From positions 64,785 through 128,784 of the IMG/VR virus record IMGVR_UViG_3300017746_000001: a DNA stretch of 64,000 bases; one strand, given 5' to 3'. The stretch is from a virus. How positions within the stretch are numbered: the first letter of the stretch is position 1; every line of letters begins with the position of its first letter. Shown one piece after another: positions 11,604 to 47,136 of this stretch. The translations under genes were made by a program, and so were the position numbers. The notes below the pieces were generated by a model, which made no database searches, had not been told where the DNA came from, and worked only from the letters and a program-made list of their open reading frames with translations.

Positions 11604-11717
11604 TCAGTCGAACTTCTCGTACTCTCTAATCTTTGAAAGAGGTACGGAAGTCACTATTTCTCCTGTTTTTTTGTGCCTAAATTTTTGTTTAGGTAATTCT
11701 CTTGGGTCTTTAGGCAT
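11604..11717 (-). CDS. 37-aa small protein (not in ORF track)
   Basis: MPKDPRELPKQKF...; stop is the TGA inside the next motif; GAGGAAGGTG upstream. Confidence 0.5.
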   Translation of the reverse strand: MPKDPRELPKQKFRHKKTGEIVTSVPLSKIREYEKFD

Positions 11718-12183
11718 CGTCAATCACCTTCCTCAAATCTTCAATGAAAAAGGGGAAGTCCCTACTATGGTATAACCCATCAGTCGCTTCCATCCTGTCA
11801 GCAATATCAGTAATCGCTTTACGCAATTGTTTGATTTCTTCATATCTATCAAACTCTTTTCTTACTACCGTTAGGTCGAGTCTAAAGTTTTCTGAGTCAA
11901 ATTGCTCATGGCTAAGTGAGAATGATAGCCCAGACAAAAACTCGACTGGGTACATTTCTCTGCCCATTTCTATGATGAACTCTCGGTTCATCTTGTTTTT
12001 CAAATCTAACATTTCATTGTTGATGAATTCGTCCACTATGTCTGCGAAAGAGTCGCCCCAGACTAGATCTTGAACTGGAGTTATTCCTGGTTCAATATTC
12101 ACTAGCCCTTTTGTGGGTTGATTTTCACTTTCTTTGCCAAAGTGTATTCCTCCAGTTTCAATATCTAAAGGCCAAAATCCCAT
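11710..12183 (-). CDS. hypothetical protein
   Basis: TAATG overlap with GAGGAGGTG SD. Confidence 0.7.
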   Translation of the reverse strand: MGFWPLDIETGGIHFGKESENQPTKGLVNIEPGITPVQDLVWGDSFADIVDEFINNEMLDLKNKMNREFIIEMGREMYPVEFLSGLSFSLSHEQFDSENFRLDLTVVRKEFDRYEEIKQLRKAITDIADRMEATDGLYHSRDFPFFIEDLRKVIDDA

Positions 12184-12635
12184 TATTGCACCTCCTCAAC
12201 ATTAATCTTTGAAAATCCTATTTTATCACAAATCCAATATTCTAATCCTTTTTGCACGATGTCTCCAACAGACATAGAATGCATGTTGATTGTTTCGTGT
12301 CCTGATTTGTATTTTATTAGTGGTAAAAGTGGTTCTAACAACCCTTTTTCCACCATATCCATGTGTGAGCCACCATATGCATTAGATATTCTAAATGATT
12401 CTTCTAGCTCCTCTGTGTTTATTTTGGCTACTGCTCTGTAATATTCGAAATACTCTGGTTTCCAATTCTTACTTCCTTTACTTGTGGTCTCTAAATACGC
12501 TTCCCATGCAGGATATTTCTTTGCTGCATTGTCCCAACCACCGTCAGGACCATTTACGAATTCAACCATTTCATCTGTCGTATGTAATTGAAACAGAGTA
12601 ATTTTATCTTTATCTAATATTTTTTGTATTGCCAT
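12183..12635 (-). CDS. YodL-like domain protein
   Basis: motif-led start; C-terminal HSMSVGDIV...GF. Confidence 0.6.
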   Translation of the reverse strand: MAIQKILDKDKITLFQLHTTDEMVEFVNGPDGGWDNAAKKYPAWEAYLETTSKGSKNWKPEYFEYYRAVAKINTEELEESFRISNAYGGSHMDMVEKGLLEPLLPLIKYKSGHETINMHSMSVGDIVQKGLEYWICDKIGFSKINVEEVQ

Positions 12636-12637
12636 GG

Positions 12638-12838
12638 TCAGTATTTGAGTTTCCAAGTGTCATTCGCGTAGTTCTTACGAAATCTAGGGTTTCTTCCAAG
12701 GTTTCTCCCAATATCCTTGGGGGAAGTTCCGTGTTTGTATCTGTCATTAATCAGATCTGCTAATTGATTAGAGGTTAGCGCCCCTTTTTGTCTCAAAAGA
12801 CTGACGACATATTGTTCTAATCTTTTACTCAGCGCCAT
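12638..12838 (-). CDS. small winged-helix-like DNA-binding protein
   Basis: resembles 15949..16242 (IND...HGT...GN/RN L..PRF). Confidence 0.6.
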   Translation of the reverse strand: MALSKRLEQYVVSLLRQKGALTSNQLADLINDRYKHGTSPKDIGRNLGRNPRFRKNYANDTWKLKY

Positions 12839-12951
12839 TTTTTCCGTTTCCTGGGTTTATGCCCAAGGCTTTGTAAACGGTTTTGACATTTGGACTTCTC
12901 TGCTTTTGTATGTTGGAGATATTCCTTTCCACATGCTAAACATTTAGCCAT
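12829..12951 (-). CDS. 40-aa Cys/His basic microprotein (not in ORF track)
   Basis: motif-led MAKCLACGKEYLQH...KC. Confidence 0.6.
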   Translation of the reverse strand: MAKCLACGKEYLQHTKAEKSKCQNRLQSLGHKPRKRKKWR

Positions 12952-12953
12952 GG

Positions 12954-13382
12954 TCAGTTAAGGGATTCTTTGTACTCTGCCCAAAGTTTTGAAATTTCTT
13001 CCTTTGGTGTTCCCTTGTGTTTAGTTCTGAATTGAGGCCAACTTAGCCTCTCGAGTGTTTTAGGCTCCGAGGAAGAAGCGTCTTTACCTTCCACCCCTTC
13101 ACTCTTCGCCTCGTCCGAATCAAGATTTGAGGAACTTGATGTTTCAGCCTTGTTATCAGAGGCCAATTCGGTTTCGAGTGTTGTTTCGGCTATTGGTTCT
13201 GCATCATTTTGAACAGACCCGCCCTTTTCAAGTGCGATAAGCCTTCTTTTTATTTGTTTAATTTCCACGGTCAGTTTGCGAATTTTGTCCTTATCCTTTT
13301 CTTCATCAGGAACACGGAGTAAAGTCGCTCTTTGTACTTTCAATTGCACCAAACGGGCATGATCACTATCTGTCCAACTCAT
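12954..13382 (-). CDS. hypothetical protein with WPQF motif
   Basis: own TTCAAACGAC element upstream; stop lies within the next motif. Confidence 0.7.
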   Translation of the reverse strand: MSWTDSDHARLVQLKVQRATLLRVPDEEKDKDKIRKLTVEIKQIKRRLIALEKGGSVQNDAEPIAETTLETELASDNKAETSSSSNLDSDEAKSEGVEGKDASSSEPKTLERLSWPQFRTKHKGTPKEEISKLWAEYKESLN

Positions 13383-13425
13383 CTCGCTCGATTTGTTAGA
13401 GAGGGGATAGTCGTTTGAATGTTGT

Positions 13426-13647
13426 CTAAGCAGTTTGTTTTTGCTTAATCGGCCAAAACCTCTTCATAGGAAGATTACAATGCTTGCAATAGCCGTTGCC
13501 ATCTGCCATAACATCTGTCCTCCATAGTTTCTTTCTTTCAGAAAGAGGTCTGCCTTTTCTGTCTAATTCCCAACAACCGCACCTTTCATCTGCCTCAGTC
13601 ATCTGTGCATTCTTAGTAGTTATGTCGTTTCTAACTTTCGTCTTCAT
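13426..13647 (-). CDS. small Cys-containing protein
   Basis: motif-led; CGC and CKHC. Confidence 0.65.
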   Translation of the reverse strand: MKTKVRNDITTKNAQMTEADERCGCWELDRKGRPLSERKKLWRTDVMADGNGYCKHCNLPMKRFWPIKQKQTA

Positions 13648-13657
13648 GGTCAGTTTT

Positions 13658-14164
13658 TCATAGTAAATCTAGAATTTCTTCCACATAAACGCCCATTGCC
13701 ACATTAGCTTGCGCATTCATAATGAAATTCACACCTTCATTGATAGGTGCTGCTTCATCTGCGGCTCTGATTCCTGAAAAATATCTTTTGTTGTTATGAG
13801 GCCCAATTATGCAGTAGAAGTGGGATGTGTATTGTGCTTCCGTATATTCGCACATCCTAAATCCCTCGACATTGTATGTAATTCCATCTCTTTCATATCT
13901 TTGTCCGGTCATCCATACCTCGGGAGGAAGAACTTCCAACATTTCTTGGTATTCGCTCTCTTCAATTTCCGTGAAGGGTTTGCTGTAGGTCTTTTCTAAC
14001 ACATTAGCAATTAATTCTAATGCCACTTCAAAGTTCATCAACTCCCCTCCTGATTCATCTATTACTTCTGCAATCGGCCTTTTGCCGTAATGCGTAACAT
14101 CGCCATCAACGAGTGCTTCGATGTTACTCTTTCCTTTTTTGTAAATAACTTGTATTTCTTCCAT
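13658..14164 (-). CDS. DUF1419-like hypothetical protein
   Basis: motif-led; EIEESEYQEMLEVLPP. Confidence 0.65.
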   Translation of the reverse strand: MEEIQVIYKKGKSNIEALVDGDVTHYGKRPIAEVIDESGGELMNFEVALELIANVLEKTYSKPFTEIEESEYQEMLEVLPPEVWMTGQRYERDGITYNVEGFRMCEYTEAQYTSHFYCIIGPHNNKRYFSGIRAADEAAPINEGVNFIMNAQANVAMGVYVEEILDLL

Positions 14165-14171
14165 GGTCAGT

Positions 14172-14528
14172 TTAGAACCCTTTAGAGGGTTTTGCCTTTC
14201 TTAGTGCATTTCTAGCCAGTTCAAAGAAAGTTTCCCAATCTCCTCGGTCCATTTCAATGAAGGCATCGATTTCTTCGCTATGATCACCAATTACATATTC
14301 TAAGGCCGCATACATTTCTGGTGCTGCCGATATTAGTTCCGCTATTGCGAATCCTTCATCTTTATCATTTACTGTTCCGGCTTTAGCAAAACCAGTCTTA
14401 GCTTTGCTTTGTGATTTTACCAAGGCGATATGCTCGCCTAATTCTGTTTTTACTGCATAAGGATAGTGTCCTTGGATGATTCTTAAGGAAATATCTTGTG
14501 TTTTTGTGCTATCTACAGACCAACGCAT
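14172..14528 (-). CDS. phage-type hypothetical protein
   Basis: AELISAAPEMY motif; GGAGG upstream. Confidence 0.7.
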   Translation of the reverse strand: MRWSVDSTKTQDISLRIIQGHYPYAVKTELGEHIALVKSQSKAKTGFAKAGTVNDKDEGFAIAELISAAPEMYAALEYVIGDHSEEIDAFIEMDRGDWETFFELARNALRKAKPSKGF

Positions 14529-14530
14529 AG

Positions 14531-14710
14531 TTAGGCCTCCAAATCATATTCTATGTATCTTCCGTCATTTGTCCTTATATCCCCTACCATTTCGCAAGTA
14601 GCGCCACAGTCCTTGCAGACAAGTGTGACTCTTGCTTCTGTTAAACCATCGGTGTGATCTTCCACAATCCAATCGTGGCTGCCTCTTTTTTTACATTTCT
14701 CGTAGTTCAT
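14531..14710 (-). CDS. 59-aa Zn-ribbon protein (not in ORF track)
   Basis: motif-led MNYEKCKKRGSHDW...CKDCG. Confidence 0.65.
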   Translation of the reverse strand: MNYEKCKKRGSHDWIVEDHTDGLTEARVTLVCKDCGATCEMVGDIRTNDGRYIEYDLEA

Positions 14711-14718
14711 GGTCAGTA

Positions 14719-15156
14719 TCAGTCTTCTCTTTCTTTGAAGATCCTAATTATATCCAATAGAAACTCATTGATTGTCCACTCCGAATACGGAGCGTCCGAG
14801 AAGTCCACTTTGGCGTGAATCTCATCATGCGGTACGCCGATTGCGTCTGCGAGGTCGTTGAGCCATGCGATTCGCAACTTCCTGAGTTGGACTGCATCAT
14901 CAATTGTGTCTTTGGGATTCCAGGCTGTAATTGCCATACTTGCTTCGAATAGCAAGTCATGTAGCGCCGTTAGCCCATACACTTCAATTATGTGCATTCC
15001 CCACTCAGAAAGTTCCTCTTTTGCTTCTAAGGAACCAGCGTTTATCTCCGCATATTCTGTCCTTAATTCCATTTCGTTTGTTGCCATTAGTCTGATTTGG
15101 CAATTCTTCAGTTCGTCATTTCGGATTAGTTCGTCTAAAATGTCTTCTTCTGTCAT
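14719..15156 (-). CDS. hypothetical protein
   Basis: motif-led ORF. Confidence 0.75.
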   Translation of the reverse strand: MTEEDILDELIRNDELKNCQIRLMATNEMELRTEYAEINAGSLEAKEELSEWGMHIIEVYGLTALHDLLFEASMAITAWNPKDTIDDAVQLRKLRIAWLNDLADAIGVPHDEIHAKVDFSDAPYSEWTINEFLLDIIRIFKERED

Positions 15157-15165
15157 GGTCAGTAT

Positions 15166-15375
15166 TTATTCAAGTACACTCATACAAGTGGCGATAACAT
15201 TGTTGTAATCTGCACTCATAGCTAGGTCCGTAACTTGTTTGATGTCTTCTCTGGGCCATTGAGCCCTTTTTAGTTGTCTTTCAGTATAACCGATTATTGC
15301 GAAGGCGTTTCCATCAACTCCTAGTAGAGTCCCTTCTGCCTTTCCATTCTTTTCAATTAATTTTTCTATTGCCAT
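15166..15375 (-). CDS. phage-type small protein
   Basis: motif-led; LLGVDGNAFAIIG...AMSADY. Confidence 0.75.
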   Translation of the reverse strand: MAIEKLIEKNGKAEGTLLGVDGNAFAIIGYTERQLKRAQWPREDIKQVTDLAMSADYNNVIATCMSVLE

Positions 15376-15377
15376 GG

Positions 15378-15734
15378 TCAGACTTGGGGCGGTTGCTCTA
15401 ATTCCCAAGTGGAAAGTTCTTGATTCCACTTCCAAAGGAAACCATCCCATTGAACAAACCAACCACCGTTCATTTGAAACGGATCTGAATTAGTCATCAT
15501 TTGATTTGAAAAGGGCGTGGGAGCATTGGGGAGCAAATTTACTTGCTGCGCCCCTGGTGTTCTAATTAACTGAGGTATCATACACCAAATGAAGACTGAG
15601 GCATATCCCATCCAAAAGATAGGTGCTTCAACTTGTTCTGGTAATTTTAACCCGCTAATGTCTAAATCGACTAATCTAGCATACCAATAACCCCCTGCTA
15701 CGAGGGCCATCACTACGCCAAACAATCTTCTCAT
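15378..15734 (-). CDS. membrane protein
   Basis: motif-led ATG 15734 (alternative 15746); two hydrophobic segments. Confidence 0.7.
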   Translation of the reverse strand: MRRLFGVVMALVAGGYWYARLVDLDISGLKLPEQVEAPIFWMGYASVFIWCMIPQLIRTPGAQQVNLLPNAPTPFSNQMMTNSDPFQMNGGWFVQWDGFLWKWNQELSTWELEQPPQV

Positions 15735-15776
15735 GGTCAGTAACATGGCAGTGCCATGCGTCTTTGTCCTTTGAAA

Positions 15777-15986
15777 TTACTCGGTATCGAGTATTTCATA
15801 ATGTTCTTTCCAACTACCTACCAGTTCCATGTGTTTTGGAGATAGTGTGTCGCTATTTCCAGGACAAGGCTTTACTGGCCCATCCTGCCATTTCTTAAGT
15901 TTAGACTTAGACATGCTGATTGTGTGGATACTTCCACAAAATCTGCATTTAGCTTTCCAATTCGGTACTGTCGGCATCTTCATCAA
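15777..15986 (-). CDS. small Zn-finger-like protein
   Basis: CRFC...CP...H. Confidence 0.55.
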   Translation of the reverse strand: MMKMPTVPNWKAKCRFCGSIHTISMSKSKLKKWQDGPVKPCPGNSDTLSPKHMELVGSWKEHYEILDTE

Positions 15987-16242
15987 CTGTAAAATTGGGT
16001 GTTAATTCCCATACTTTGTGTGTGTATGACGAACTACTCGCCCGAATGCGTGCAGTTCCGACATCTTTGAATCTTGGGTCTTTCGCTAGAATGTTTCCTA
16101 ATACATTCATTGTAGTCCCATGCCTTGTAGTGTTGTTAATATGGTCATATATTGCTCCAGTAGGAGCGCTTCCATTTTCTTTTAGGTATTTTTCAACCTT
16201 ATTTCTTAGTCTTGCTGTTCTTCTACCTATCTTTAGTCCCAT
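15949..16242 (-). CDS. winged-helix protein (DUF3860-like)
   Basis: motif-led; IYDHINNTTRHGTTMNVLGNILAKDPRF. Confidence 0.65.
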   Translation of the reverse strand: MGLKIGRRTARLRNKVEKYLKENGSAPTGAIYDHINNTTRHGTTMNVLGNILAKDPRFKDVGTARIRASSSSYTHKVWELTPNFTVDEDADSTELES

Positions 16243-16253
16243 GGTCAGTCACC

Positions 16254-17513
16254 CTAGTCGTTACGGCAGAAGTCTTTAGTGACTTCGCCTATGATTAGGG
16301 AATTCTTTCTTCTTTGTATATGTTCTTTCATAGATTTTCTCTTTCCATCGTATTTCTTTGAGATGATTCTTGCTGGACCATGATTCTTTACAGGAATCTT
16401 GGTGTATCTTTTCTTTTCCTCTTCGGAAAGAGAAGATTGTATTTCTCCAGCGTAGTATGTGTTAAAAATCCCCTTTTCCAATTGAGAAGGAGTTAGTTTC
16501 CAAGAACCAGGCGTATACGGAGCAGGATAGTTTTTCTTTTCCTTGCTTGTGAGTCCTTTGATGACATACACATGCGTACAATCTGGATGGTCGCACCAAC
16601 CAGTCGCGTATGGCATTCTGTGATGGCCTGCATTACACCTGCCACCACGATTGAGAGTCATTCCTGCCTCGTGCCATTTAGCGTGTTTGTCGGTTTCAAC
16701 GAATTTCTCTTCGATAGCAAGGGCTTCCTTTAGCCCTATTCCGTCTGCGTCGATTAGACGATCCACTTCCCATTCTTTGCAGAATGGACACCACATACAG
16801 GAGCTTTTCTTGACAGGCGAACCATCGCCCCGATAATCCCAACCTAAATGCTTGAGCATTTCCAAACATTCCTTTCTGTTCATCTCCAAGCCTTGTAAGG
16901 GGTAATTGTATTCGTGACCCTTTATTTTGTTCTCAGAGTGATTGGCTGTGAATCTGTCGGTTCTCCCGCCTTCATCCTTCTCAATCCCTAAGCTCCAATG
17001 CTTAGTACATACCGAAGCATCCCCAAATCTTGAGTCGCCCCATTCCTGTTGAACTTGGCCCTTGAACCTCATACTGCAGATGTGGCTCGCCCCAGGCATT
17101 AGCGGGAGCATTCCTCCATCCAACAACCATTCTGAGATTGTGTAGGGCTCGTTTCTCTGTTCATACTGTTCTTTTTCATCATCTGAAAGTGATTTCCATT
17201 GTTTTTGTTGTAACGCCTTGTTGGTTTCCTTGTGGAAATATCGCACTAGATGATGTCTTACGACTACCAGTTCGACTCCTGCGGATTCACAACGATTTTT
17301 TGCGTATTCTATATTTTCATATGTTTCAGGCCATTCGCTACCAGGATCCGAGAACACAGCCGCTTCGAAGGGTGGGAACAGTTCGTCGAGTTTTGCTCGA
17401 CTCATTCCCAGGTACTTCGCTGCTTTGTCTCTTTCCAAGTGCATTGCGAGTAGTGCGGTTGAATCCACACCACCCCCAAAAGCCAACAAATTCACTTTTT
17501 TTTGAATTTTCAT
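16254..17513 (-). CDS. PAPS-reductase/adenine-nucleotide alpha-hydrolase family protein
   Basis: FGGGVDST PP-loop, DPGSEWPETY, KSSCMWCPF; motif-led start 17513. Confidence 0.8.
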   Translation of the reverse strand: MKIQKKVNLLAFGGGVDSTALLAMHLERDKAAKYLGMSRAKLDELFPPFEAAVFSDPGSEWPETYENIEYAKNRCESAGVELVVVRHHLVRYFHKETNKALQQKQWKSLSDDEKEQYEQRNEPYTISEWLLDGGMLPLMPGASHICSMRFKGQVQQEWGDSRFGDASVCTKHWSLGIEKDEGGRTDRFTANHSENKIKGHEYNYPLQGLEMNRKECLEMLKHLGWDYRGDGSPVKKSSCMWCPFCKEWEVDRLIDADGIGLKEALAIEEKFVETDKHAKWHEAGMTLNRGGRCNAGHHRMPYATGWCDHPDCTHVYVIKGLTSKEKKNYPAPYTPGSWKLTPSQLEKGIFNTYYAGEIQSSLSEEEKKRYTKIPVKNHGPARIISKKYDGKRKSMKEHIQRRKNSLIIGEVTKDFCRND

Positions 17514-17524
17514 GGTCAGTCTTC

Positions 17525-17962: not shown

Positions 17963-17964
17963 GG

Positions 17965-18402: not shown

Positions 18403-18452
18403 GGTCAGTCTCCGAACATCTAAGTTCGGAATTGATTGCTATTAATATTATC

Positions 18453-19328: not shown

Positions 19329-19336
19329 GGTCAGTA

Positions 19337-19828: not shown

Positions 19829-19841
19829 GGTCAGTATTAAT

Positions 19842-20111: not shown

Positions 20112-20129
20112 GGTCAGTATCATTCTACC

Positions 20130-25512: not shown

Positions 25513-25514
25513 GG

Positions 25515-38406: not shown

Positions 38407-38416
38407 GGTCAGTTAC

Positions 38417-38758: not shown

Positions 38759-38760
38759 TT

Positions 38761-38961: not shown

Positions 38962-38968
38962 GGTCAGT

Positions 38969-39283: not shown

Positions 39284-39287
39284 GGTC

Positions 39288-39614: not shown

Positions 39615-39621
39615 GGTCAGT

Positions 39622-39897: not shown

Positions 39898-39912
39898 GGT
39901 CAGTCAACTAGG

Positions 39913-40419: not shown

Positions 40420-40429
40420 GGTCAGTCGC

Positions 40430-41500: not shown

Positions 41501-41780
41501 GGTCAGTATTGTCTTTCATTTTGATATACATTATCGCCATGTTGTCGTTTTGAAATGACTCGAAAAGCCATTTATCCTCTATGAGATAGTCCATCAATTG
41601 AATTACATTCTTTTCCGGCTCCATGTCCCATTCCTTACCTATCTTGTTCCAATCCTTATCTTCCAACAATCCTGTTTCCTTGTATTCTTCTATAAGACTC
41701 TCCTTAGTATGGATTTGGGTTATATCTGTCCCGTTCCAAGAGCATAGGAAGTAGTCGTCATTTTCTAAATCTATATCCAT
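41484..41780 (-). CDS. hypothetical protein
   Basis: motif-led ORF. Confidence 0.7.
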   Translation of the reverse strand: MDIDLENDDYFLCSWNGTDITQIHTKESLIEEYKETGLLEDKDWNKIGKEWDMEPEKNVIQLMDYLIEDKWLFESFQNDNMAIMYIKMKDNTDHDNDK

Positions 41781-41792
41781 GGTCAGTTAGCC

Positions 41793-42317
41793 TCACTCAG
41801 CAACGCCAAGTTGGACTGCGCTGGATGCTCGCATGAGCATCCATTCTTCGCATCCCTCTTTTTTCTTAAGGCTCCTAGTCCAGTCGGCGGGCGTAGGAAC
41901 GAAACCGAAGTCCTCGTTCATGTGTTGCTCGCCAATCCAACGGACAGGTATGTTTTTTGTGTGGAAGTTTTCTTGCAATTTGATTTCTAGTAGCTTGTTC
42001 TCAAGGTCTGATAGAATAGATTGGTTCGTGTTGTTCGGTTCAAGATTCTCAAGTGCGGCCATCGTGACTGCAATCTCCTCTCTCTCGACGCTAAGATCCT
42101 TCTTTTCTTTTCTTGCATTAGTCTTGACTCGGATAAAAGGTCCGAATACCTGTTCTGCAATTTCTATTCCGCCAGTATGATGTAAAACTACTCTATGTGC
42201 AAAATGCCAGTCTTGTTTCTTGAATTGGTCAAAGAATTCGTGGATTCTCAAGTAATCCTCCGGTTCTCCACCCCACTTCTTTGCTGAACTCATTGCATGG
42301 TGTATTGCTGTACTCAT
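41793..42317 (-). CDS. DUF6915-like phage protein
   Basis: HAMSSAKKWGG...HR..LHH..GI...EQHM.ED.G. Confidence 0.7.
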   Translation of the reverse strand: MSTAIHHAMSSAKKWGGEPEDYLRIHEFFDQFKKQDWHFAHRVVLHHTGGIEIAEQVFGPFIRVKTNARKEKKDLSVEREEIAVTMAALENLEPNNTNQSILSDLENKLLEIKLQENFHTKNIPVRWIGEQHMNEDFGFVPTPADWTRSLKKKEGCEEWMLMRASSAVQLGVAE

Positions 42318-42427
42318 TCTTCCTCAATCCTTGTTGTTTTGACTTCTGGGAATCGGAAGACCTTGACGGCCAACCAATACAGAAATCTTTCATACATATC
42401 TTGTATTGTTAATTTTAACATGGTCAT
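42314..42427 (-). CDS. 37-aa small protein (not in ORF track)
   Basis: motif-led; ATGA-coupled to next gene. Confidence 0.55.
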   Translation of the reverse strand: MTMLKLTIQDMYERFLYWLAVKVFRFPEVKTTRIEEE

Positions 42428-42435
42428 GGTCAGTT

Positions 42436-42681
42436 CTAGTCCTCAGTTTCATCAAATTGTCTCAACTCTCTCACCTTCTTGTGATATAGTGCAAGTGCTT
42501 TTTGCTCACCAACAACAACCCATCCTTCGACTAACTCCTTTGTGTCATCAGATGTATGTCGGACTATGTCAATAGCCCAGTGTTTAGCAAGTCTGTGCAT
42601 CTCTACTTCTTTATCTTTAATTATTCCACTATATTTTTCTGTGTCAAATTTTTTTGTTTCTAAAAATTTCTTGTTTGTCAT
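42436..42681 (-). CDS. hypothetical protein
   Basis: motif-led start 42681. Confidence 0.7.
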   Translation of the reverse strand: MTNKKFLETKKFDTEKYSGIIKDKEVEMHRLAKHWAIDIVRHTSDDTKELVEGWVVVGEQKALALYHKKVRELRQFDETED

Positions 42682-42689
42682 GGTCAGTA

Positions 42690-43091
42690 TCACTCAGGAG
42701 GCGCGATTTCTACACCACCAATGTGCATGGTTCCATCATCCATATAATTTTTGGCATATTCAAAGACTGCTGTTGCATGTCTTCCGAAATCTCTACTCTG
42801 TTCATCGTCGCAGGTAAGAAGGTAGTCTCTTATGATGAAGTCTACCAACCTATCCAGTAGGTCTGCCTTTTTTTCCTTCAAAGACCAATGGAAACCATAT
42901 GGGACATAAACCAAATTGTAATCTGGTTGTCCATCATGTTCTTTGTTATTTATGAACTGGAGTATCTTGCTTCCTTTTGGAATAATTAGTTCCTCTTCTG
43001 TTCGTCCTTCATAGGCTACTTTTCCTTTTCCAGGCCATAGGCCTGAAATAGCGATTGGTTCACTTTCGTTTTCATTGTTATTTGTTGTCAT
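42690..43091 (-). CDS. hypothetical protein, paralog of 8629..8904
   Basis: motif-led start 43091. Confidence 0.75.
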   Translation of the reverse strand: MTTNNNENESEPIAISGLWPGKGKVAYEGRTEEELIIPKGSKILQFINNKEHDGQPDYNLVYVPYGFHWSLKEKKADLLDRLVDFIIRDYLLTCDDEQSRDFGRHATAVFEYAKNYMDDGTMHIGGVEIAPPE

Positions 43092-43099
43092 GGTCAGTA

Positions 43100-43450
43100 T
43101 CACTCAGGTTGAGTGATCTGTTGAAATTCCAACTCGGCATCTGTAAATGTCTTCCATCTTACTAGGTCGTTTGTTTGAATCCCGATTTTAGGGTTGCTAT
43201 TCAGCCCACCATAGCCTGAGTCATCAATAGAGATGCATTGGAAGTCTTGTGCGTTTTTGATTCCCCAATCTTCATCGCAAAAACCCATAAAGTAAGGCGA
43301 ACATGGCGAACATGTTAATTTTAACCAAATCCCTTCTTCGTTGTTTTTTACTTCTCTCCAGTTATATATGAGTTCTTCTTTGTATTCTTTGGGTAATGAA
43401 GCTCGAGCGTTTTTTGACACCCAAGCATATGCCCAATAAGTTACTCCCAT
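43100..43450 (-). CDS. hypothetical protein
   Basis: follows a motif-led 10-aa ORF (43453..43485). Confidence 0.7.
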   Translation of the reverse strand: MGVTYWAYAWVSKNARASLPKEYKEELIYNWREVKNNEEGIWLKLTCSPCSPYFMGFCDEDWGIKNAQDFQCISIDDSGYGGLNSNPKIGIQTNDLVRWKTFTDAELEFQQITQPE

Positions 43451-43496
43451 TTTTATTCCTCTTTAATTTCTTCTTTTGTTGCCATGGTCAGTTGGC

Positions 43497-44276
43497 TCAG
43501 TAATTTGAGCCGCGTACTTCATATTGTATTTCATAAGGTTCGTAATACTCTTCATCTTCATCATAAGGATAGAAGGTAATCGTTCCGTTCGTACTTGGGT
43601 GGTTTGCCCAAGAACCGAAATTAGCCCTTAGAGGCAGATATGTCGGACTCATTGTACGAGCAATTCCCATTTTCCTCAATGACTTCATATTGAGCCATTC
43701 TTCCTGGAACATCTTTTCCTCATCGGCTTTGATTTCTTCTTCTGTTCCACCTTTCCTAGACCATATGTGGGCCGTGTAAAGGGTGAATCGTTCATCACTC
43801 AAGAGTATTTCTTCAATTTCTCCCTTGTCGTTTACAATCGTAGCATAGACATTTTCTACGCATCCTGAATCGTGGCCTCCGCTAAATGTGCAGACCAGTT
43901 TACTCCATTGCATATCCTTGATGTATTGCCTCAAAATGTCATTCCATTCTTCTTCACCTACTCTTTCTCTAGCCACCACCCATCTTTCTTGATTGGTGAT
44001 AGATGCGCTCCAAGCATCTGTTTCAGTTTCCATGAAACGGATTTTTTTCTTGATGGATTCAAGAGATCGTTCTTCGGGCGATGTATTCTTTCCAAGCCCC
44101 CAGTATGTATTCTCATTGCTTTTTCTTTCACTAAACCATTCTAGGTAGTCTTTGTATGATTTGGTCTCCATCAGTTCCTCATCGGACATGGTTCTCCATT
44201 CTTCCTCGGATTTTCCTTCTACGGTAAATGGGTGCAATTTTGCACCTAATCTTTCTATAAACATTTTATTTGCCAT
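43497..44276 (-). CDS. hypothetical protein, paralog of 23153..24049
   Basis: motif-led; FSGGHDSGCV. Confidence 0.7.
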   Translation of the reverse strand: MANKMFIERLGAKLHPFTVEGKSEEEWRTMSDEELMETKSYKDYLEWFSERKSNENTYWGLGKNTSPEERSLESIKKKIRFMETETDAWSASITNQERWVVARERVGEEEWNDILRQYIKDMQWSKLVCTFSGGHDSGCVENVYATIVNDKGEIEEILLSDERFTLYTAHIWSRKGGTEEEIKADEEKMFQEEWLNMKSLRKMGIARTMSPTYLPLRANFGSWANHPSTNGTITFYPYDEDEEYYEPYEIQYEVRGSNY

Positions 44277-44284
44277 GGTCAGTA

Positions 44285-45175
44285 TTACAAGTGTTCCCTA
44301 CGGAACTCTTCTGCAGCATCTTTACCGAATACTTCTTCCATCATCTCTTCCATTCGGACTTGAGACACTAAAAGGTCGTCTAGCATGTGCTGTTTCTTCT
44401 CTAATATCCGGTATTCATCCTTGTTTTTCAGATTCTTGACTAGGTCTGTGTCCTTCTGGAAGATGCTCACCACCCTGATTCTCATATTGGGACCAGTTGT
44501 GACTGAAGCTGTATGAACTCTGGAGCAACCAGGCAGGGTCTTGTAAACCAAATGATGGAGAATTGCTATGAATCCCCCTGGTTTGGTCACTCTAACTGCC
44601 TCATTCACCCATGCATAAGGACGAATGGGTTCTGTTTCCCATAGAGGACTACTGTATGTGATTTCGACTCTCTTGTGCTTCGTGTTCTCCACCATGTCGT
44701 ATGGGGGATCCACTAGCAGGTAGTCGTAAGTTTCGTCTTCCATAGGGAATGTCTCCGTCGCGTCTGCAACGAATGTAGGGTCGTTAGTCTCCTGTATGTC
44801 CATTGTGTCTTCGTTCTCTCTTCCTTGAATACTGCCAGAGAACAGATGCAAAACCTTGCTTCCCTCTCTTATCTGCAGTAAATCATCAATCTTGTTCAAG
44901 AATCCGCCTGGATAGCCTCCCTTGTAGGGTGCTGTGTTCCTGCCGCATACCATCGAACTTCTCCTTGAGGCCGAGCCGTGAATCGACTTGTCCTTTGTCT
45001 TGAGTTTGTTGTAGTGTACTGCCAGTCTCCAAACTGAACCTTTTGATACCTTTACGCCGATTTTCTCGGACCACTTCTCGGCTACATCATCATATTCCAT
45101 TTCTTGTAAATCTCTCAGGACTTCTTCCTTGTGGTCGTTGAGAAGTCCAACTTTTTTGCCTCTTAATTTTAGCAT
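44285..45175 (-). CDS. amino-DNA methyltransferase-like protein with N-terminal HTH
   Basis: YKGGYP, VLHLFSG, VDPPY. Confidence 0.75.
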   Translation of the reverse strand: MLKLRGKKVGLLNDHKEEVLRDLQEMEYDDVAEKWSEKIGVKVSKGSVWRLAVHYNKLKTKDKSIHGSASRRSSMVCGRNTAPYKGGYPGGFLNKIDDLLQIREGSKVLHLFSGSIQGRENEDTMDIQETNDPTFVADATETFPMEDETYDYLLVDPPYDMVENTKHKRVEITYSSPLWETEPIRPYAWVNEAVRVTKPGGFIAILHHLVYKTLPGCSRVHTASVTTGPNMRIRVVSIFQKDTDLVKNLKNKDEYRILEKKQHMLDDLLVSQVRMEEMMEEVFGKDAAEEFRREHL

Positions 45176-45182
45176 GGTCAGT

Positions 45183-45431
45183 CTAGGCTAGAATTAGCCG
45201 CATAATCTCTTCAGTCTTGTCAGGCTTTAGAGGATTGACTACTGCTTGGTGTATAATTGAAGCAGGAAATCCATCAGACATCGAAGTAGCTTCAATGATT
45301 ACGCATTTCCAGTTCGGCCTCAATACATTAGTTGTAGATACCACATCCTCTGCCCAACGGTATTCGCTTTTCTTATCCACCACAATGTATTGTGCTGGCT
45401 TCCTAGGCTTCTTGAGCATTATAATTTTCAT
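45183..45431 (-). CDS. hypothetical protein
   Basis: motif-led ORF. Confidence 0.7.
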   Translation of the reverse strand: MKIIMLKKPRKPAQYIVVDKKSEYRWAEDVVSTTNVLRPNWKCVIIEATSMSDGFPASIIHQAVVNPLKPDKTEEIMRLILA

Positions 45432-45489
45432 GGTCAGTACAGATGCAATCTCCGCATCTCTTACATATTGGACAACAAATGTCGTTCAT
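45403..45489 (-). CDS. 28-aa Cys-rich microprotein (not in ORF track)
   Basis: motif-led MNDICCPICKRCGDCICTDH... Confidence 0.5.
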   Translation of the reverse strand: MNDICCPICKRCGDCICTDHENYNAQEA

Positions 45490-45497
45490 GGTCAGTT

Positions 45498-45845
45498 TTA
45501 AGGGAACATCTTGTTCCATTCTTCTATTGTATAGGTAGTGTAAGGTGTTTTTTCTTCACCATACTGGTTTGCGAGAAAGGGCATAATTATTGTTTTTTGA
45601 TTATCCCCTATAATGCAATCGCGTAGTAAAACTCCTGCCCAAGAATCTTGATCATAATCGCCTGGGAAATGTCCATTTAACCTCTCGATTAATTTTTCTG
45701 CTCTTTCTTGAGCATCTTCTTTTCTCTCGTATGTGAAAAGAGCCCCGTTTGAGGCATCACAAGCACAATATCCTACCATTTGGTTCTCCGCAACAACCCA
45801 AAGGTTGTCAGGAGTATATTTTGTTCTATTAGATGTATTATCCAT
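45498..45845 (-). CDS. hypothetical protein
   Basis: variant motif ACTCACCATG. Confidence 0.7.
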   Translation of the reverse strand: MDNTSNRTKYTPDNLWVVAENQMVGYCACDASNGALFTYERKEDAQERAEKLIERLNGHFPGDYDQDSWAGVLLRDCIIGDNQKTIIMPFLANQYGEEKTPYTTYTIEEWNKMFP

Positions 45846-45863
45846 GGTGAGTTCGGGTTGACG

Positions 45864-45907
45864 AAAAAATGTGGGGAGTTTGTTGCAGTAATCGCAACAA
45901 ACTCCCC
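45864..45907 (-). terminator. long hairpin followed by T-tract
   Basis: GGGGAGTTTGTTGC/GCAACAAACTCCCC stem, then TTTTTT on the - strand. Confidence 0.6.
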
Positions 45908-45917
45908 TTAATTTCTA

Positions 45918-46172
45918 TTAGTCATTTATACTCGCCCACATCTCTTGGGCTGTTTTTCCTTGATAATTTTTATTCCAGTATCTATTACTGGTGTTTTCTT
46001 TATCTTGCGCATAACTCTTGTCTTTTGACCAGAGGTATGCTTGATTTTTCGCGATTTTCCTAAATTTGTTTGCTATATATTTGTTTTGAGACTGTGATAG
46101 CCTCTTTACTTTCTTGAAGAATCTAGTAGGTTCCCAGATTCTTGCACCAACTATAGGTGAAATGCGTTTCAT
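45918..46172 (-). CDS. small basic protein
   Basis: variant motif ACTAACCATG. Confidence 0.6.
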   Translation of the reverse strand: MKRISPIVGARIWEPTRFFKKVKRLSQSQNKYIANKFRKIAKNQAYLWSKDKSYAQDKENTSNRYWNKNYQGKTAQEMWASIND

Positions 46173-46479
46173 GGTTAGTTGGTCACTTTACCGTCAGACC
46201 ACGACAAGCACGCATACAGGGGTTAGTTTCCCATATCGTACTTCGTTGAGGCAGGCGTGAACATTATTGTGATAAACAAAAACAACATTTGGTAGCAATA
46301 CCCTCTCTCTGCCTCGTATTGCATGGTTAGTATGTGTCTCTCAAAACCGAGCATTTCGCTTCCCCGTAGGGGTGCGGTAAGGCTGAAACACAGTTTGCCT
46401 TTTTCTATTAAGAGCAAAGGTCGTGCTGCTCTGTCACGGCCCCATAGGGGTCTTATCTCTAGTTACTCGGAATTGTTCT

Positions 46480-47136
46480 TTAGTTCCTAGGCCTACCGGA
46501 GAGTCGGCGGAATGTATTTTTAGCATTCACCTTCTTAGGTATTGTAACCTCTTCGGGTGGGTTTTCCTCTTCCAGTTGCTTTTGTTTGAGGAGTTTTCTT
46601 CTGCGGTAAACGCGATCCCTCCTGTTTGCATCTGTCCCAGGTATGTATGCCATTGCCTCATCCGGCCAATTCTCTCGAAGTGCTAATTCTAGAACACCTC
46701 TTATCGTAGTTATTTCCTCGATAGGTCTCTTTGGTCTTGGTGTTTTCCTGTAACCTTCCGTCATGGAATGACGACTTAGTGTAGCGTCGAATTTTTTACC
46801 TCCGAACACCTCTTGGGCGCTTTTTTCACGGCTGTTCTTCACTATATCGCTGCATTGTTTGAATGTTTCCTGCAGGACCTTTATCACGCCAACTTCTAAT
46901 TTTTGTTGTTTCGCCATTTCTATAGCGCGTGTAATGTGAATTGATTCTTCTACTGCATCTTTTCTAATTTGAAGCAATAGATTGTCTGCATGCCCGTGTG
47001 CTAGTGCATTATCGCACCAGAAGCACGAGGCTGTGCCGTGAGTATCGAAGTTGTATTTTCGCTTCTCACATCGACCATTGTTCCTGATTACTTTCTCAAG
47101 ATGGTTGGTCAAGTCGCTTTTCCTTTCGTTTGTCAA
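46480..47136 (-). CDS. basic hypothetical protein, possibly nucleic-acid binding
   Basis: TTG start after GAGGTAGGTG; CFWC; Arg-rich C-terminus. Confidence 0.65.
   Translation of the reverse strand: MTNERKSDLTNHLEKVIRNNGRCEKRKYNFDTHGTASCFWCDNALAHGHADNLLLQIRKDAVEESIHITRAIEMAKQQKLEVGVIKVLQETFKQCSDIVKNSREKSAQEVFGGKKFDATLSRHSMTEGYRKTPRPKRPIEEITTIRGVLELALRENWPDEAMAYIPGTDANRRDRVYRRRKLLKQKQLEEENPPEEVTIPKKVNAKNTFRRLSGRPRN

Follow-up and report, generated by a model that had tools for sequence, protein, structure and literature searches.

A heptamer in place of the ribosome-binding site along a one-strand gene array of a marine archaeal virus

Organization of the array

The window analysed here is a 64,000-nt stretch of DNA (positions 64,785 to 128,784 of virus record IMGVR_UViG_3300017746_000001). 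It contains a 41-kb one-strand block of a marine archaeal virus, in which nearly all genes carry the same heptamer in place of a ribosome-binding site: on the minus strand, between 8,629 and 50,001, ACTGACC or a one-base variant lies immediately 5' of 65 ATGs. The array, its promoter boxes and the neighbouring transcription gene are located as follows (window coordinates throughout).

8629..50008 (−) one-strand array, ~75 genes; 65 heptamer-led ATGs, 9 SD-led and 2 box-promoter-led starts
50110..50120 (−) TTTTACGACAA box, 22 nt before tRNA-Lys; probably drives head unit as a conventional promoter
50011..50087 (−) tRNA-Lys(CTT), array head
15764..15774 (−) TCAAAGGACAA box within array, just upstream of heptamer-led 15734
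13408..13418 (−) TCAAACGACTA box, ~25 nt upstream of start 13382 (no motif, no SD)
51346..52296 (+) TFB/TFIIB homologue, 4-Cys ribbon and two cyclin repeats; divergent from array head

The heptamer-led starts are listed below from head to tail; each is ACTGACC-ATG unless another heptamer is given.

49999..50008 (−) ACTAACC-ATG, head variant, 87 aa; starts 2 nt past tRNA CCA
49083..49092 (−) 586-aa head protein, unknown fold
47217..47226 (−) 28-codon micro-ORF; end overlaps SD-led TTG 47136
46322..46331 (−) ACTAACC-ATG, 33 codons
46170..46179 (−) ACTAACC-ATG, 84 aa
45843..45852 (−) ACTCACC-ATG, 115 aa; T6 run upstream
45487..45496 (−) 28-codon micro-ORF
45429..45438 (−) 82 aa
45173..45182 (−) 296 aa
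44274..44283 (−) 259 aa
43483..43492 (−) 10-codon micro-ORF; SD of 43450 inside its codons
43089..43098 (−) 133 aa
42679..42688 (−) 81 aa
42425..42434 (−) 37-codon ORF; end overlaps SD-led 42317
41778..41787 (−) 98 aa; 17-nt overlap with next motif-led start
41498..41507 (−) 356 aa, CX3CX2C radical-SAM-like; present in 6/6 records
40417..40426 (−) 168 aa
39895..39904 (−) 91 aa
39612..39621 (−) 108 aa
38959..38968 (−) 66 aa
38404..38413 (−) 181 aa
37850..37859 (−) 278 aa
37001..37010 (−) 350 aa, C5 DNA methylase
35940..35949 (−) 134 aa; chance SD-like GGGTGAT upstream
35528..35537 (−) 195 aa; RNA contig end 35531
34918..34927 (−) 132 aa
34511..34520 (−) 357-aa ATPase; RNA contig end 34511
33429..33438 (−) 369 aa
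32309..32318 (−) 395 aa
31016..31025 (−) 66 aa
30495..30504 (−) 208 aa
29749..29758 (−) 177 aa
29208..29217 (−) 295 aa, N6/N4 methylase
28312..28321 (−) 170 aa; RNA contig end 28312
27790..27799 (−) 295 aa, Dam methylase
26895..26904 (−) 112 aa
26547..26556 (−) 72 aa
25764..25773 (−) 83 aa
25510..25519 (−) 73 aa; upstream stop is motif TGA
24807..24816 (−) 249 aa; RNA contig end exactly at A 24809
24047..24056 (−) 298 aa; RNA contig ends at A 24049, two runs
23108..23117 (−) 318 aa; RNA contig end at A 23110
22143..22152 (−) 184 aa
21580..21589 (−) 152 aa
21113..21122 (−) 161 aa
20618..20627 (−) 137 aa; RNA contig end 20621
20109..20118 (−) 89 aa; RNA contig end at A 20111
19826..19835 (−) 163 aa
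19326..19335 (−) 291 aa
18400..18409 (−) 145 aa
17960..17969 (−) start 17962, 145 aa; GAGGTG adjoins motif, exception to exclusivity
17511..17520 (−) 419-aa PP-loop protein
16240..16249 (−) 97-aa wHTH (DUF3860-like)
15732..15741 (−) start 15734, 118 aa; box promoter just 5'
15373..15382 (−) TCTGACC-ATG, 69 aa
15154..15163 (−) 145 aa
14708..14717 (−) 59 aa
14162..14171 (−) 168 aa
13645..13654 (−) 73 aa
12949..12958 (−) 40 aa
12633..12642 (−) 150 aa
11599..11608 (−) 234 aa
10882..10891 (−) 377 aa
9739..9748 (−) 262-aa PCNA-like
8902..8911 (−) 91 aa; last gene of array

With at most two mismatches, ACTGACCATGG is found 78 times in the window vs 14.4 copies expected from shuffles, and this count was reached in 0 of 100 shuffles. 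The exact CTGACCATG has 61 minus-strand copies, every one within 8,900-49,090 of the window, and a single plus-strand copy in the whole 128,784-bp contig. Information in the logo of heptamer-led starts is limited to -7..+3, and no BRE/TATA-like signal appears at -20..-45. Own-heptamer copies are followed by ATG in 791 of 856 cases, by GTG in 3 and by TTG in none. As the preliminary description had noted, the TGA inside the motif serves as the upstream stop at 25515, 17965, 15378, 12954, 12638 and also 11604, whose preceding ORF is just 37-39 aa long.

SD sequences and the heptamer

Nine starts in the array are led by a Shine-Dalgarno (SD) sequence.

47134..47156 (−) TTG 47136 (GAGGTAGGTGGTG), 218 aa; 4-nt overlap with upstream stop
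43448..43465 (−) ATG 43450 (GAGGA), 116 aa
42315..42332 (−) ATG 42317 (GAGGA), 174 aa; ATGA overlap
39281..39300 (−) ATG 39283 (GGAGG), 104 aa
38756..38775 (−) ATG 38758 (GAGGAGGA), 113 aa
26332..26350 (−) ATG 26334 (GAGGTGA), 179 aa; ATGA overlap
14526..14545 (−) ATG 14528 (GGAGG), 118 aa
12181..12200 (−) ATG 12183 (GAGGAGGTG), 157 aa
11604..11740 (−) 37-39-codon ORF, start 11717/11723 (GAGGAAGGTGAT); ends on the motif TGA at 11604

The starts 39283 and 11717/11723 are additions to the seven described before; in all seven of those, a GAGG-type box lies 6-10 nt before the start codon, which overlaps or adjoins the preceding stop.

The SD and the heptamer had been proposed to exclude each other. 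We scored SDs as duplex energy against GAUCACCUCCU in -20..-4, with a cut-off of -8 kcal/mol, which was passed by 3 of 64 motif-led starts vs 6 of 13 gap-filling non-motif starts in this genome (Fisher P=5e-4). In six related records the cut-off was passed by 22 of 393 motif-led starts, compared with 9 of 36 non-motif starts (P=4e-4) and 164 of 3,663 internal ATGs (P=0.31), so SD-like pairing at heptamer-led starts is at the background rate only; a cruder junction-based test in 40-nt windows found no difference (61/311 vs 21/75, P=0.12). The exclusivity is thus statistical rather than absolute, as the GAGGTG adjoining the motif at 17962 illustrates. The view that the motif replaces the SD stands, since it occupies the SD's place and SDs at motif-led starts are no commoner than chance.

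Outside the array, internal operon genes of the same genome have strong SDs such as GAGGTGAT, while operon-first genes have no SD and a TCAAACGRC box 15-30 nt upstream, therefore the host uses both leaderless and SD-led initiation.

The heptamer in related viruses

Using the 419-aa PP-loop protein as a probe, we found relatives with the same architecture and other heptamers (ACTGAAC, ACCGCTC, ATTGAAC, ATTTGAC and (A)CTACCC-A). One clade of arrays contains at least 6 heptamer classes, which are clustered on the tree yet switch between close relatives, and variants of the heptamer lacking G concentrate at array heads in four records. Because relatives share the architecture with other heptamers, likeness to the eukaryotic Kozak context, suggested earlier, does not explain the motif: ACCGCTC places C at -3, and the G at +4, frequent in this genome (56% of heptamer-led starts), falls to 32% across the ACTGACC class and ranges over 26-64% in other classes. 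Pairing with host 16S rRNA is likewise not supported, since no conserved rRNA could read heptamers that differ between close relatives. As for an RNA of the element itself, the head non-coding RNAs hold no complement of the heptamer, even with G-U pairs allowed, and none is enriched on the sense strand.

RNA contig ends

The metatranscriptome data are all assembled contigs from a single study (32 of 199 contig pieces listed), whose ends cannot prove RNA ends. Of the 16 pieces listed for runs X1 and X4, 9 start, read in mRNA sense, no more than 2 nt from the A of a heptamer-led ATG (probability of at least 9 such ends, 8e-16). Five listed pieces end exactly at the A (23110, 24049 twice, 24809 and 20111; probability of at least 5, 3e-11), and some of the X1/X4 end contigs have 2-3 unaligned letters past it. 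In runs X3 and X6, 16 of 16 listed pieces end 15-118 nt inside genes and 0 at +1. These data suggest that the heptamer places the beginning of each mRNA exactly at its start codon, and the contig ends at +1 may be primary RNA ends. Of the two options offered before, the first, an RNA that begins beside the ATG, agrees with these ends. Direct recruitment of ribosomes is less likely, as the heptamer is also found ahead of a tRNA and of non-coding RNA units.

Initiator-type promoter or RNA cleavage site

Several features argue that the heptamer is read on DNA at the start site. Heptamer copies without a following ATG have C at -1 and a purine next in 54 of 65 cases (P=2e-5). The heptamer lies upstream of small RNA units whose terminal stem begins at +1, and of a tRNA. 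Antisense to the arrays, copies of a virus's own heptamer are 3-5 times rarer than expected, with 4 observed against expectations of 18.4 (other-class arrays), 11.9 (one-substitution neighbours) and 12.9 (Markov model). In two relatives (G004 and G005), a hairpin with T8 stands 18-21 nt before a heptamer-led ATG, and no box promoter is found ahead of the genes remaining after it. Its counterpart here is the following run.

45864..45869 (−) T6 run, sense strand, 15 nt before ACTCACC-ATG 45845

An initiator-type promoter is therefore tentatively favoured over a cleavage site, at which transcripts from the boxes would be processed. Cleavage would fit the clear box promoters of the same genome, among them one heading the array and one shortly before heptamer-led 15734. 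It would also fit the near-absence of upstream ORFs overlapping heptamer-led ATGs, as if RNA were cut there; even in relative G003, whose heptamer has no stop, ATGA-type overlaps number only 2 among ~98 starts. The initiator reading is in turn weakened by the lack of a BRE/TATA-like signal at -20..-45, where archaeal initiation as known requires TBP and TFB to be bound. Outside arrays of the same genomes the heptamer shows no depletion, which also counts against an initiator.

The TFB homologue beside the array head matches TFIIB cores (E 1e-10) and has the same divergent placement in three relatives; the virus further carries an RNA polymerase A''-like gene. Among the candidates examined, no heptamer-reading factor was identified.

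Proposed expression of the array

Tentatively, and with somewhat less than even confidence, we suggest that the heptamer acts as an initiator-type promoter that fixes where the RNA begins, yielding leaderless mRNAs, with SD-led genes as second cistrons. The heptamer and the following purine would define the 5' end; in the array this purine is the A of ATG, and each gene would therefore be expressed as a leaderless mRNA. Archaeal ribosomes start on leaderless mRNAs without an SD. Genes without the heptamer would be translated through a classical SD and stop-start overlap. Such a minimal promoter, without a TATA box, would be read at -7..+1 by a factor that we propose to be virus-specific and to co-evolve with the heptamer. 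A short head unit, made up of a tRNA, non-coding RNAs and genes led by the G-less variant and closed by a terminator, would be transcribed from a conventional box promoter; behind this unit, the main heptamer class would drive 60-100 accessory genes, and head unit and main array may be expressed in a temporal order.

Organization of the array and its gene starts

All genes in window 8,629–50,001 are encoded on the minus strand. Allowing up to two mismatches, ACTGACCATGG occurs in the window 78 times against 14.4 expected, a number reached in 0 of 100 shuffles. All 61 minus-strand copies of the exact CTGACCATG fall within this array; the plus strand of the entire contig has one copy, and the other 87 kb of the contig are essentially without it. 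The heptamer ACTGACC or a one-base variant directly abuts 65 ATGs, of which 60 open ORFs of at least 40 aa and 5 open micro-ORFs of 10–37 codons, and there is no conservation upstream of −10 (A of the ATG being +1). The preceding stop mostly ends 7–10 nt before the heptamer-led ATG; where the TGA within the motif terminates the upstream ORF, this distance is 2 nt. In the relative G004 the TGA of the heptamer terminates the upstream ORF in 51 of 71 cases. In the relative G003, whose heptamer contains no stop codon, the mode of the stop-to-start distance is 7 nt, with 2 ATGA-type overlaps in about 98 junctions.

The preliminary description had named seven array genes (starts 12183, 14528, 26334, 38758, 42317, 43450 and 47136) that lack the motif and have a Shine-Dalgarno (SD) sequence instead, and all seven are as described. 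Further SD-led starts are found at 39283 (GGAGG) and in a 37–39-codon ORF beginning at 11717/11723 (GAGGAAGGTGAT); the latter ORF is terminated by the motif TGA at 11604, in agreement with the reported use of this TGA as an upstream stop. The array holds three kinds of starts, namely heptamer-led starts, SD-led second cistrons and box-led starts, the last represented by the following features.

Box-led starts within the array
13382, minus strand: start with neither motif nor SD, with a TCAAA(C/G)GAC box at 13408–13418
15764–15774, minus strand: TCAAA(C/G)GAC box inside the array, the second case with neither motif nor SD, also just upstream of the motif-led start 15734

Two other observations concern the composition of this region. 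Since 44 heptamer copies (window 8,900–49,090) read ACCATGG, the palindrome CCATGG is frequent in the contig (54 occurrences), an unusual feature in viral DNA if none of the many methylases encoded here protects it. Moreover, non-coding sequence (GATATGCAAC..., CCGAGGAAGTT) is conserved between window 50,121–50,420 and the array heads of the relatives G002 and G003; it precedes the box promoter and tRNA in all three records and is a second conserved RNA or DNA element of array heads.

Shine-Dalgarno sequences at motif-led and other starts

Each start was scored by the best duplex of positions −20 to −4 with GAUCACCUCCU, which we take to be the 16S rRNA anti-SD tail and which agrees with the GAGGTGAT boxes that the virus has at genes outside the array; the cut-off was −8 kcal/mol. 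In this genome 3 of 64 motif-led starts pass, against 6 of 13 gap-filling non-motif starts (P=5e-4). For the six related records (this contig and five IMG/VR relatives), the cut-off is passed by 5.6% of motif-led starts (22 of 393), by 4.5% of internal ATGs (164 of 3,663; P=0.31) and by 9 of 36 non-motif starts (P=4e-4). Because the rate at motif-led starts equals that of internal ATGs, the SDs found at motif-led genes arise by chance alone, and heptamer-led starts do not behave as SD-type ribosome-binding sites (P=0.31 against internal ATGs). Motif-led and SD-led starts had been proposed to be mutually exclusive, with the motif standing in for the SD. Statistically this is the case, motif-led genes carrying SDs less often than non-motif genes, with exceptions such as the GAGGTG at motif-led 17962; the background SD rate of motif-led starts bears out the second part of the proposal. 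A cruder junction test with 40-nt windows around stops gave no difference (SD in 61 of 311 vs 21 of 75, P=0.12); we regard it as too diluted and used the start-based test in its place.

Outside the array, internal operon genes have strong SDs (GAGGTGAT or GGAGG), and operon-first genes have no SD and are preceded by a (T)TCAAACGRC-type box that ends 15–23 nt before the ATG. This box pattern is enriched (29 vs 14.2), and from an archaeal TATA-like element at this position, transcription would start at the ATG. The tRNA-Lys that heads the array is also preceded by this box, at a distance of 22 nt, in this genome and in G002. The simplest common denominator of these starts is that the ribosome needs either an SD or a 5'-terminal AUG.

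Heptamer classes among related arrays

Relatives were collected via homologues of the PP-loop protein of the array, giving five IMG/VR records (whole contigs) and 80 metagenome loci. An exact 14-mer search of IMG/VR gave single chance matches only, among the matches listed, and the 586-aa protein of the array head recovered no relative when used as an IMG/VR probe. All close relatives share the array architecture, and their heptamers differ as follows.

Heptamer classes in the arrays of relatives
ACTGAAC: 24 loci, 340 copies
ACTGACC: 13 loci, 216 copies
(A)CCGCTC: 13 loci, 315 copies
ATTGAAC: 7 loci, 105 copies
ATTTGAC: 2 loci, 29 copies
(A)CTACCC-A: 2 loci, 32 copies

Two short contigs carry ACTGATC as well, and the DNA around distant PP-loop homologues (at most 40% identity) is without any such motif. 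In a quick IQ-TREE tree built from 63 rows of PP-loop protein sequences, the arrays that bear a motif group into a single clade (51 rows, SH-aLRT 99). The heptamer labels cluster on the tree, with 13 changes against 38.9 in shuffles, and ACTGACC and ACTGAAC alternate among close relatives; as this is a single gene, its exchange between arrays could mimic such switches. Sequence logos have information only at −7 to +3. G occupies +4 in 26–64% of copies depending on the class (ACTGACC class, 32%), and arrays of the ACCGCTC class have C at −3. The observation is real, statistically supported and general to a virus family. Since the heptamers differ among its members, a reader that is carried by the virus and co-evolves with its sites is called for.

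Variants without G (ACTAACC, ACTTACC, ACTTAAC, ACCACTC) concentrate in the first genes of four arrays, and minor heptamer variants cluster in further arrays too, as promoter classes would. Every major heptamer has exactly one G and the head variants have none. The head of the relative G005 (L141:400–640, a stretch taken from this record) contains three ACTTACC copies followed by ATC, GTC and GTT, in non-coding DNA before the first ORF.

The gene content of the arrays is hypervariable. Their 419 proteins fall into 296 families. Only four of these are common to the six records, namely the PP-loop protein, a CX3CX2C radical-SAM-like protein, a 170-aa protein and an N6/N4 methylase. The conserved core in this genome is accompanied by 5–6 DNA methylases and includes the following genes.

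Conserved array core
40433–41500, minus strand: radical-SAM-like protein
16257–17513, minus strand: PP-loop (PAPS-reductase-like) protein
9754–10884, minus strand: TGT/DpdA-like protein

This core looks like a 7-deazaguanine-type DNA modification set and not like a heptamer reader.

Signals at a possible start site on DNA

Thirty non-redundant array segments (454 kb) were scanned for their own heptamer. Of its copies, 791 lead into ATG, 54 into another triplet that begins with a purine and 11 into a pyrimidine. For non-ATG copies, 15.3 with a purine and 26.5 with a pyrimidine are expected, so that the former are above and the latter below expectation; a purine follows 54 of the 65 non-ATG copies at a purine content of 58% (P=2e-5). 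Position −1 is C, and +1 is a purine in all ATG copies. The heptamer may be an initiator (Inr)-type core promoter element, for which a pyrimidine at −1 and a purine at +1 of a mapped RNA 5' end are required, together with action on DNA in one orientation. The heptamer is also rare on the antisense strand of the arrays, where 4 copies were found against 18.4 expected from the same words in arrays of other classes (P=6e-5); one-substitution neighbours predict 11.9 (P=0.008) and a second-order Markov model 12.9 (P=0.004). Outside the arrays of the same genomes it is not depleted, which neither a promoter nor a cleavage site predicts cleanly.

Putative terminators are found in front of heptamer-led genes in several records. 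In G004, a 13-bp hairpin with T8 is followed after 21 nt by ACTGAAC-ATG and then by about 65 more genes with no box promoter, and in G005 a hairpin with T8 is followed after 18 nt by ACTTATC-ATG. T8 runs lie 1.1–1.4 kb into the array in G002 and G003, and in this genome a T6 run lies 15 nt before the ACTCACC-ATG at 45845. A search for BRE/TATA elements at −45 to −14 found at most 0.12 bit at every position in this genome, G005, G004 and G003; in the smaller site sets of G002 (51 sites) and G001 (44 sites), single positions reach 0.18 bit, and no box is common to the records.

The heptamer also precedes RNA genes. In G004, RNA units of 64 nt and 90 nt read ACTGAAC|GG...CC|ACTTAAC-A, and their terminal stem has its first base precisely at +1 and its last base directly ahead of the following heptamer (z ~ −3); a tRNA-Arg in the same array is flanked by heptamers likewise. 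These structured units and the tRNA-Arg(TCT), each bounded by heptamers, lie at 29,892–30,515 of G004 (L135:9892–10515, in the stretch taken from it). The 90-nt units expose GGAGGGAGG, an SD look-alike; that it serves as a decoy for the anti-SD of host ribosomes is pure speculation.

RNA ends in marine metatranscriptomes

Four marine metatranscriptomes were compared with window 19,000–38,999 as assembled contigs, with 32 of 199 pieces listed; X1 and X4 are two samples of one study, and parts of the stretch without RNA cover were not counted as evidence. Among the 16 listed pieces of X1 and X4, five have their mRNA-sense 5' end exactly on the A of a motif-led ATG (23110, 24049 twice, 24809 and 20111), two end one base upstream of the A (20621 and 35531) and two end two bases inside the ATG start (28312 and 34511). 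Given 30 motif-led starts in 20 kb, the probability of at least 9 of 16 ends within 2 nt is 8e-16. These contigs end at +1 with no run-on into unlike sequence and with the shared heptamer excluded; because they stop short of the shared heptamer, branching of the assembly graph at a repeat would not be the cause. The 16 listed pieces of X3 and X6 end 15–118 nt inside genes, with 0 of 16 at +1. The earlier suggestion that the motif creates a 5' end next to the ATG is accordingly backed by X1 and X4 (9 of 16) and not by X3 and X6 (0 of 16), in both cases from contigs. Listed contigs also cross the junctions at 20111 and 19828, so read-through RNA or contaminating DNA is present. The ends of these assembled contigs strongly suggest, without proving it, that the A of the ATG is the first base of the mRNAs.

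Ends at 27793 and 35111, which could be taken as 3' ends at −1, were discounted as they adjoin masked repeats. The oligo-dT-selected runs X9, X10, X12 and X13 contain 11–15% of the sampled words of window 19,000–28,999, and the very A-rich sense strand may account for this capture. At window 37,846–38,406, an abundant related strain (contig depth about 86–89, X3 and X6) shares only the gene 38406–37861; at each of the two flanking junctions the similarity is lost a few nt from the ATG, as if whole cassettes were swapped at the heptamer.

The virus and candidate readers of the heptamer

The window is the right half (64,785–128,784) of a single 128,784-bp contig, which encodes a thermosome (Cpn60_TCP1, E 1.6e-101), a serine recombinase outside the array, an 839-aa protein with RNA polymerase Rpb1 domain 5 (A''-like), glycosyltransferases and very large proteins without known domains; a polymerase domain was looked for in the giant proteins of 2,989 and 2,151 aa and none was found. 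Magrovirus 'group D', as described in passages of Philosof et al. 2017 (PMC5434244), has a thermosome, a resolvase, RNA polymerase A and DNA polymerase, without a recognised morphogenetic block. Because the record resembles this group, we treat it as a putative virus, or virus-like element, whose hosts would be Poseidoniales (Marine Group II) archaea, an assignment by analogy. A thermosome search of genome contigs for the host returned just two bacterial chaperonins. A near-identical stretch of about 45 nt (GTAACGGTGTGACGGGTCGAGTTTATCCTCTATACCCCTATGCG...) occurs at 49,734–49,783 and 61,034–61,083 of the whole contig (in the stretches L147 and L148 taken from it), both copies directly upstream of minus-strand genes of the large-protein block. 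Both genes are without an SD, and the stretch is probably a strong promoter present in two copies.

The virus also has a homologue of transcription factor TFB that retains the four conserved Cys and matches TFIIB cores with a profile E of 1e-10; in every case its gene is oriented away from the array head. The 586-aa protein is encoded by the first large gene of the head unit, and fast-evolving homologues occupy the same place in G005 and G002 (22% identity); it has 10 homologues among 1.84 billion representatives. It belongs to no Pfam or NCBIfam family, its Atlas scores are at most 0.78, and its structural model (AF2 pLDDT 59.9, poor) gave no match (Foldseek best E 0.42; VIA best Z 5.1 over 54 residues). 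A wHTH protein (DUF3860-like) was rejected as a reader, as its recognition region does not track the heptamer class in 35 tblastn matches. Among the 73 array proteins, the 25 listed of 28 matched Pfam families comprise methylases, PCNA, an ATPase and DUFs, and no nuclease or RNA polymerase. A guide RNA was sought with G-U pairs allowed. The head regions contain no complement save two single chance-level matches, complements on the sense strand are as frequent as those of control motifs, and no element RNA with a co-varying complement was found; the idea that a non-coding RNA of the element complements ACUGACC thus failed, with nothing beyond chance in the head regions.

Possible explanations for the heptamer

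Taken together, the heptamer probably sets a 5' end and makes leaderless mRNAs. That it does so as a promoter is quite possible, though we hold this tentatively. A start site read on DNA is favoured by the purine after non-ATG copies and the C at −1, the antisense depletion, the hairpins with T8 in front of heptamer-led genes that lack a box promoter, the heptamers before RNA genes, the clustering of G-less and minor variants, and the viral TFB homologue and A''-like subunit. A more specific picture, possible but more doubtful, is a private transcription start of a family of marine archaeal viruses with neither TATA nor BRE and only seven bases upstream of +1. It would be recognised by a fast-evolving viral reader (an early protein or the TFB homologue, working through host RNA polymerase fitted with the viral A''), captured genes with a heptamer would become leaderless, and 45–100 sites would be re-coded in concert. 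The same 5' ends could come from RNA processing, in which the box promoter upstream of tRNA-Lys and a few internal boxes produce long precursors and a sequence-specific endoribonuclease of the virus cleaves them after C(−1), in front of the purine at +1, releasing leaderless mono- or bicistronic mRNAs, small RNAs and the tRNA. RNA contigs ending at +1, the absence of a promoter-like signal upstream of the heptamer, the box promoter at the array head with boxes within the array (one just upstream of motif-led 15734), the direct flanking of array-embedded tRNAs by heptamers and the depletion of heptamer plus pyrimidine on the sense strand (11 vs 26.5 expected) all fit with cleavage, as do upstream stops just before the heptamer with hardly any overlaps, even in G003 (2 in about 98). 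The MazF family does include endoribonucleases specific for seven bases. However, antisense depletion is unexpected for a signal on RNA only, and the hairpin with T8 before the main array of G004 and G005 would stop transcription of the precursor. Sense-strand runs of at least T5 are not avoided (19 vs 17.9 expected), which is a weak argument against one 41-kb precursor. Moreover, five sense-strand copies are tolerated on the strand bearing the large late-gene block, tandem minor and major heptamers stand 8 nt apart without obvious use, an RNase family is not found among the 73 array proteins (25 of 28 matched Pfam families listed), and listed contigs cross two junctions. We consider such processing rather unlikely. 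It is improbable that the heptamer is a translation signal on uncut polycistronic RNA, where ribosomes would stop 2–10 nt upstream, be held or re-recruited by the heptamer via a viral RNA-binding protein or RNA and restart at the AUG (termination-reinitiation with a private enhancer). The tight stop-to-start spacing (2 or 7–10 nt), the TGA of the G004 heptamer as upstream stop (51 of 71), the lack of SDs at heptamer-led starts and the A-rich codons 2–6 would suit it, but the heptamer also stands before a tRNA and units of non-coding RNA, a purine and not a start codon comes after 54 of the 65 non-ATG copies, RNA contigs end at +1, the heptamer is depleted antisense, the gene first after a terminator is likewise heptamer-led, and a complementary RNA was not found.

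Very improbable, as a sole explanation, is a DNA cassette boundary, with the heptamer as a crossover or insertion site that shuffles accessory genes in an integron-like manner and its position at starts as a by-product. The hypervariable content (419 array proteins in 296 families, 4 in all six records), the build of each unit (heptamer, ATG, ORF, stop), the strand-specific and antisense-depleted heptamer, the strain breakpoints in RNA contigs at junctions 37846 and 38403 and the serine recombinase elsewhere on the contig speak for it. Against this, seven bases without dyad symmetry or conserved flanks are unlike any known recombinase site, and the abutment to ATG, the lack of SDs, the purine and RNA ends at +1 and the heptamers before small RNAs are left unexplained. 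Nor do the sites resemble integron attC, whose imperfect inverted repeats form hairpins on either side of a cassette near an integrase and attI: there is no conserved sequence outside −10 to +3, and a tyrosine recombinase was not found among the 73 array proteins. A cassette role may exist alongside the role in expression. Finally, the ribosome itself might recognise ACUGACC by pairing with host 16S rRNA, or ACCAUGG as a Kozak-like context, the latter having been raised in the preliminary description. ACCATGG is the eukaryotic consensus and is read by 44 copies here, and archaeal initiation factors are eukaryote-like. But one clade uses ACCGCTC, ATTGAAC, ATTTGAC, ACTGAAC and (A)CTACCC-A, −3 is C or A and +4 is not conserved, so the Kozak pattern (purine at −3, G at +4) is broken by C at −3 in one class and by a variable +4; the other 87 kb lack the motif and have GAGGTGAT-type SDs or box promoters. 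Because the heptamers are class-specific, both the Kozak idea and a conserved host rRNA as reader fall, and this explanation can hardly hold.

Comparison with known systems

The nearest described system is that of the start-associated sequences (SAS), and the closest functional analogue is the late initiator TAAATG of poxviruses. In the consulted sections of Pope et al. 2011 on Cluster K mycobacteriophages, SAS are 13-bp GGGATAGGAGCCC-like repeats with the SD core AGGAG, present in 11–19 copies 3–7 bp from the start, and the authors propose binding by a host or phage factor (PMC3203893). By the same sections, SAS are, as here, short asymmetric repeats in one orientation and in the non-structural half of the genome only, lying just upstream of starts with ATG strongly preferred and sometimes with the upstream stop inside the repeat; they are absent from the host genome (PMC3203893). 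However, the heptamer has 7 nt, abuts the ATG, is present in 45–100 copies per genome and has no SD core, which places it outside SAS; it also varies among related viruses, precedes RNA genes and coincides with RNA contig ends at +1. The initiator of poxvirus late promoters overlaps the ORF start codon, and in the parts of the source that treat it, poxviruses share with this virus a virus-specific element over the start codon, a virus-directed transcription machinery and temporal classes with related but distinct motifs (PMC11980589). They differ in an AT-rich upstream region, a complete RNA polymerase of their own and eukaryotic hosts, whereas here there is no upstream element and only the TFB homologue and the A''-like subunit were found. 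Poxvirus late mRNAs also gain a poly(A) leader.

Short start signals of comparable size are known from other systems. In non-segmented negative-strand RNA viruses, a short gene-start signal at every junction sets the mRNA 5' end. Minimal start-site promoters include the yeast mitochondrial nonanucleotide, the baculovirus late TAAG and the Trichomonas Inr with IBP39, in which the information lies within about 10 nt of +1 and is read by a dedicated polymerase or initiator-binding protein. These differ from the present case in their polymerases (RNA-dependent, single-subunit, baculoviral) and in their hosts, and we know of no such gene-start or minimal-promoter system in archaea or their viruses. 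Archaeal leaderless mRNAs, as characterized in excerpts of two sources, have the AUG at the 5' end or a few nt from it, no SD and a strong preference for AUG, with internal cistrons led by SDs (PMC7531240, PMC11698992). The array resembles them in the absence of SDs, the AUG preference and the SDs for internal cistrons, and would also do so in an AUG near the RNA end. However, known archaeal leaderless genes are preceded at about 25 nt by a BRE/TATA promoter, an arrangement that the box-led genes here appear to share, whereas array genes are without such a box and packed 7–10 nt after the previous stop.

In the searchable text of the literature on magroviruses and Poseidoniales, there was no mention of promoter, leaderless or start codon, supplements (possibly with gene-start tables) lying outside this search; the same kind of text gave nothing relevant on leaderless mRNA in archaeal viruses or Poseidoniales. 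Three 10-mer spellings of the motif retrieved unrelated papers only (primers, barcodes).

Should the heptamer be a promoter, it would represent the first class of TATA-independent initiation signals in an archaeal, Pol II-like system, and its classes, together with their matched readers, would be naturally orthogonal expression tags of seven bases. Should it be a cleavage site, this would be a viral system that makes leaderless mRNAs, as has been debated for bacterial MazF. Either way, the concerted evolution of dozens of cis sites is striking, and the heptamer would explain how a hypervariable block of 60–100 anti-defence and DNA-modification genes is expressed without ribosome-binding sites. 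It would also provide an exact gene-start rule for abundant uncultured viruses of the Poseidoniales type, in which standard gene callers will misplace starts.
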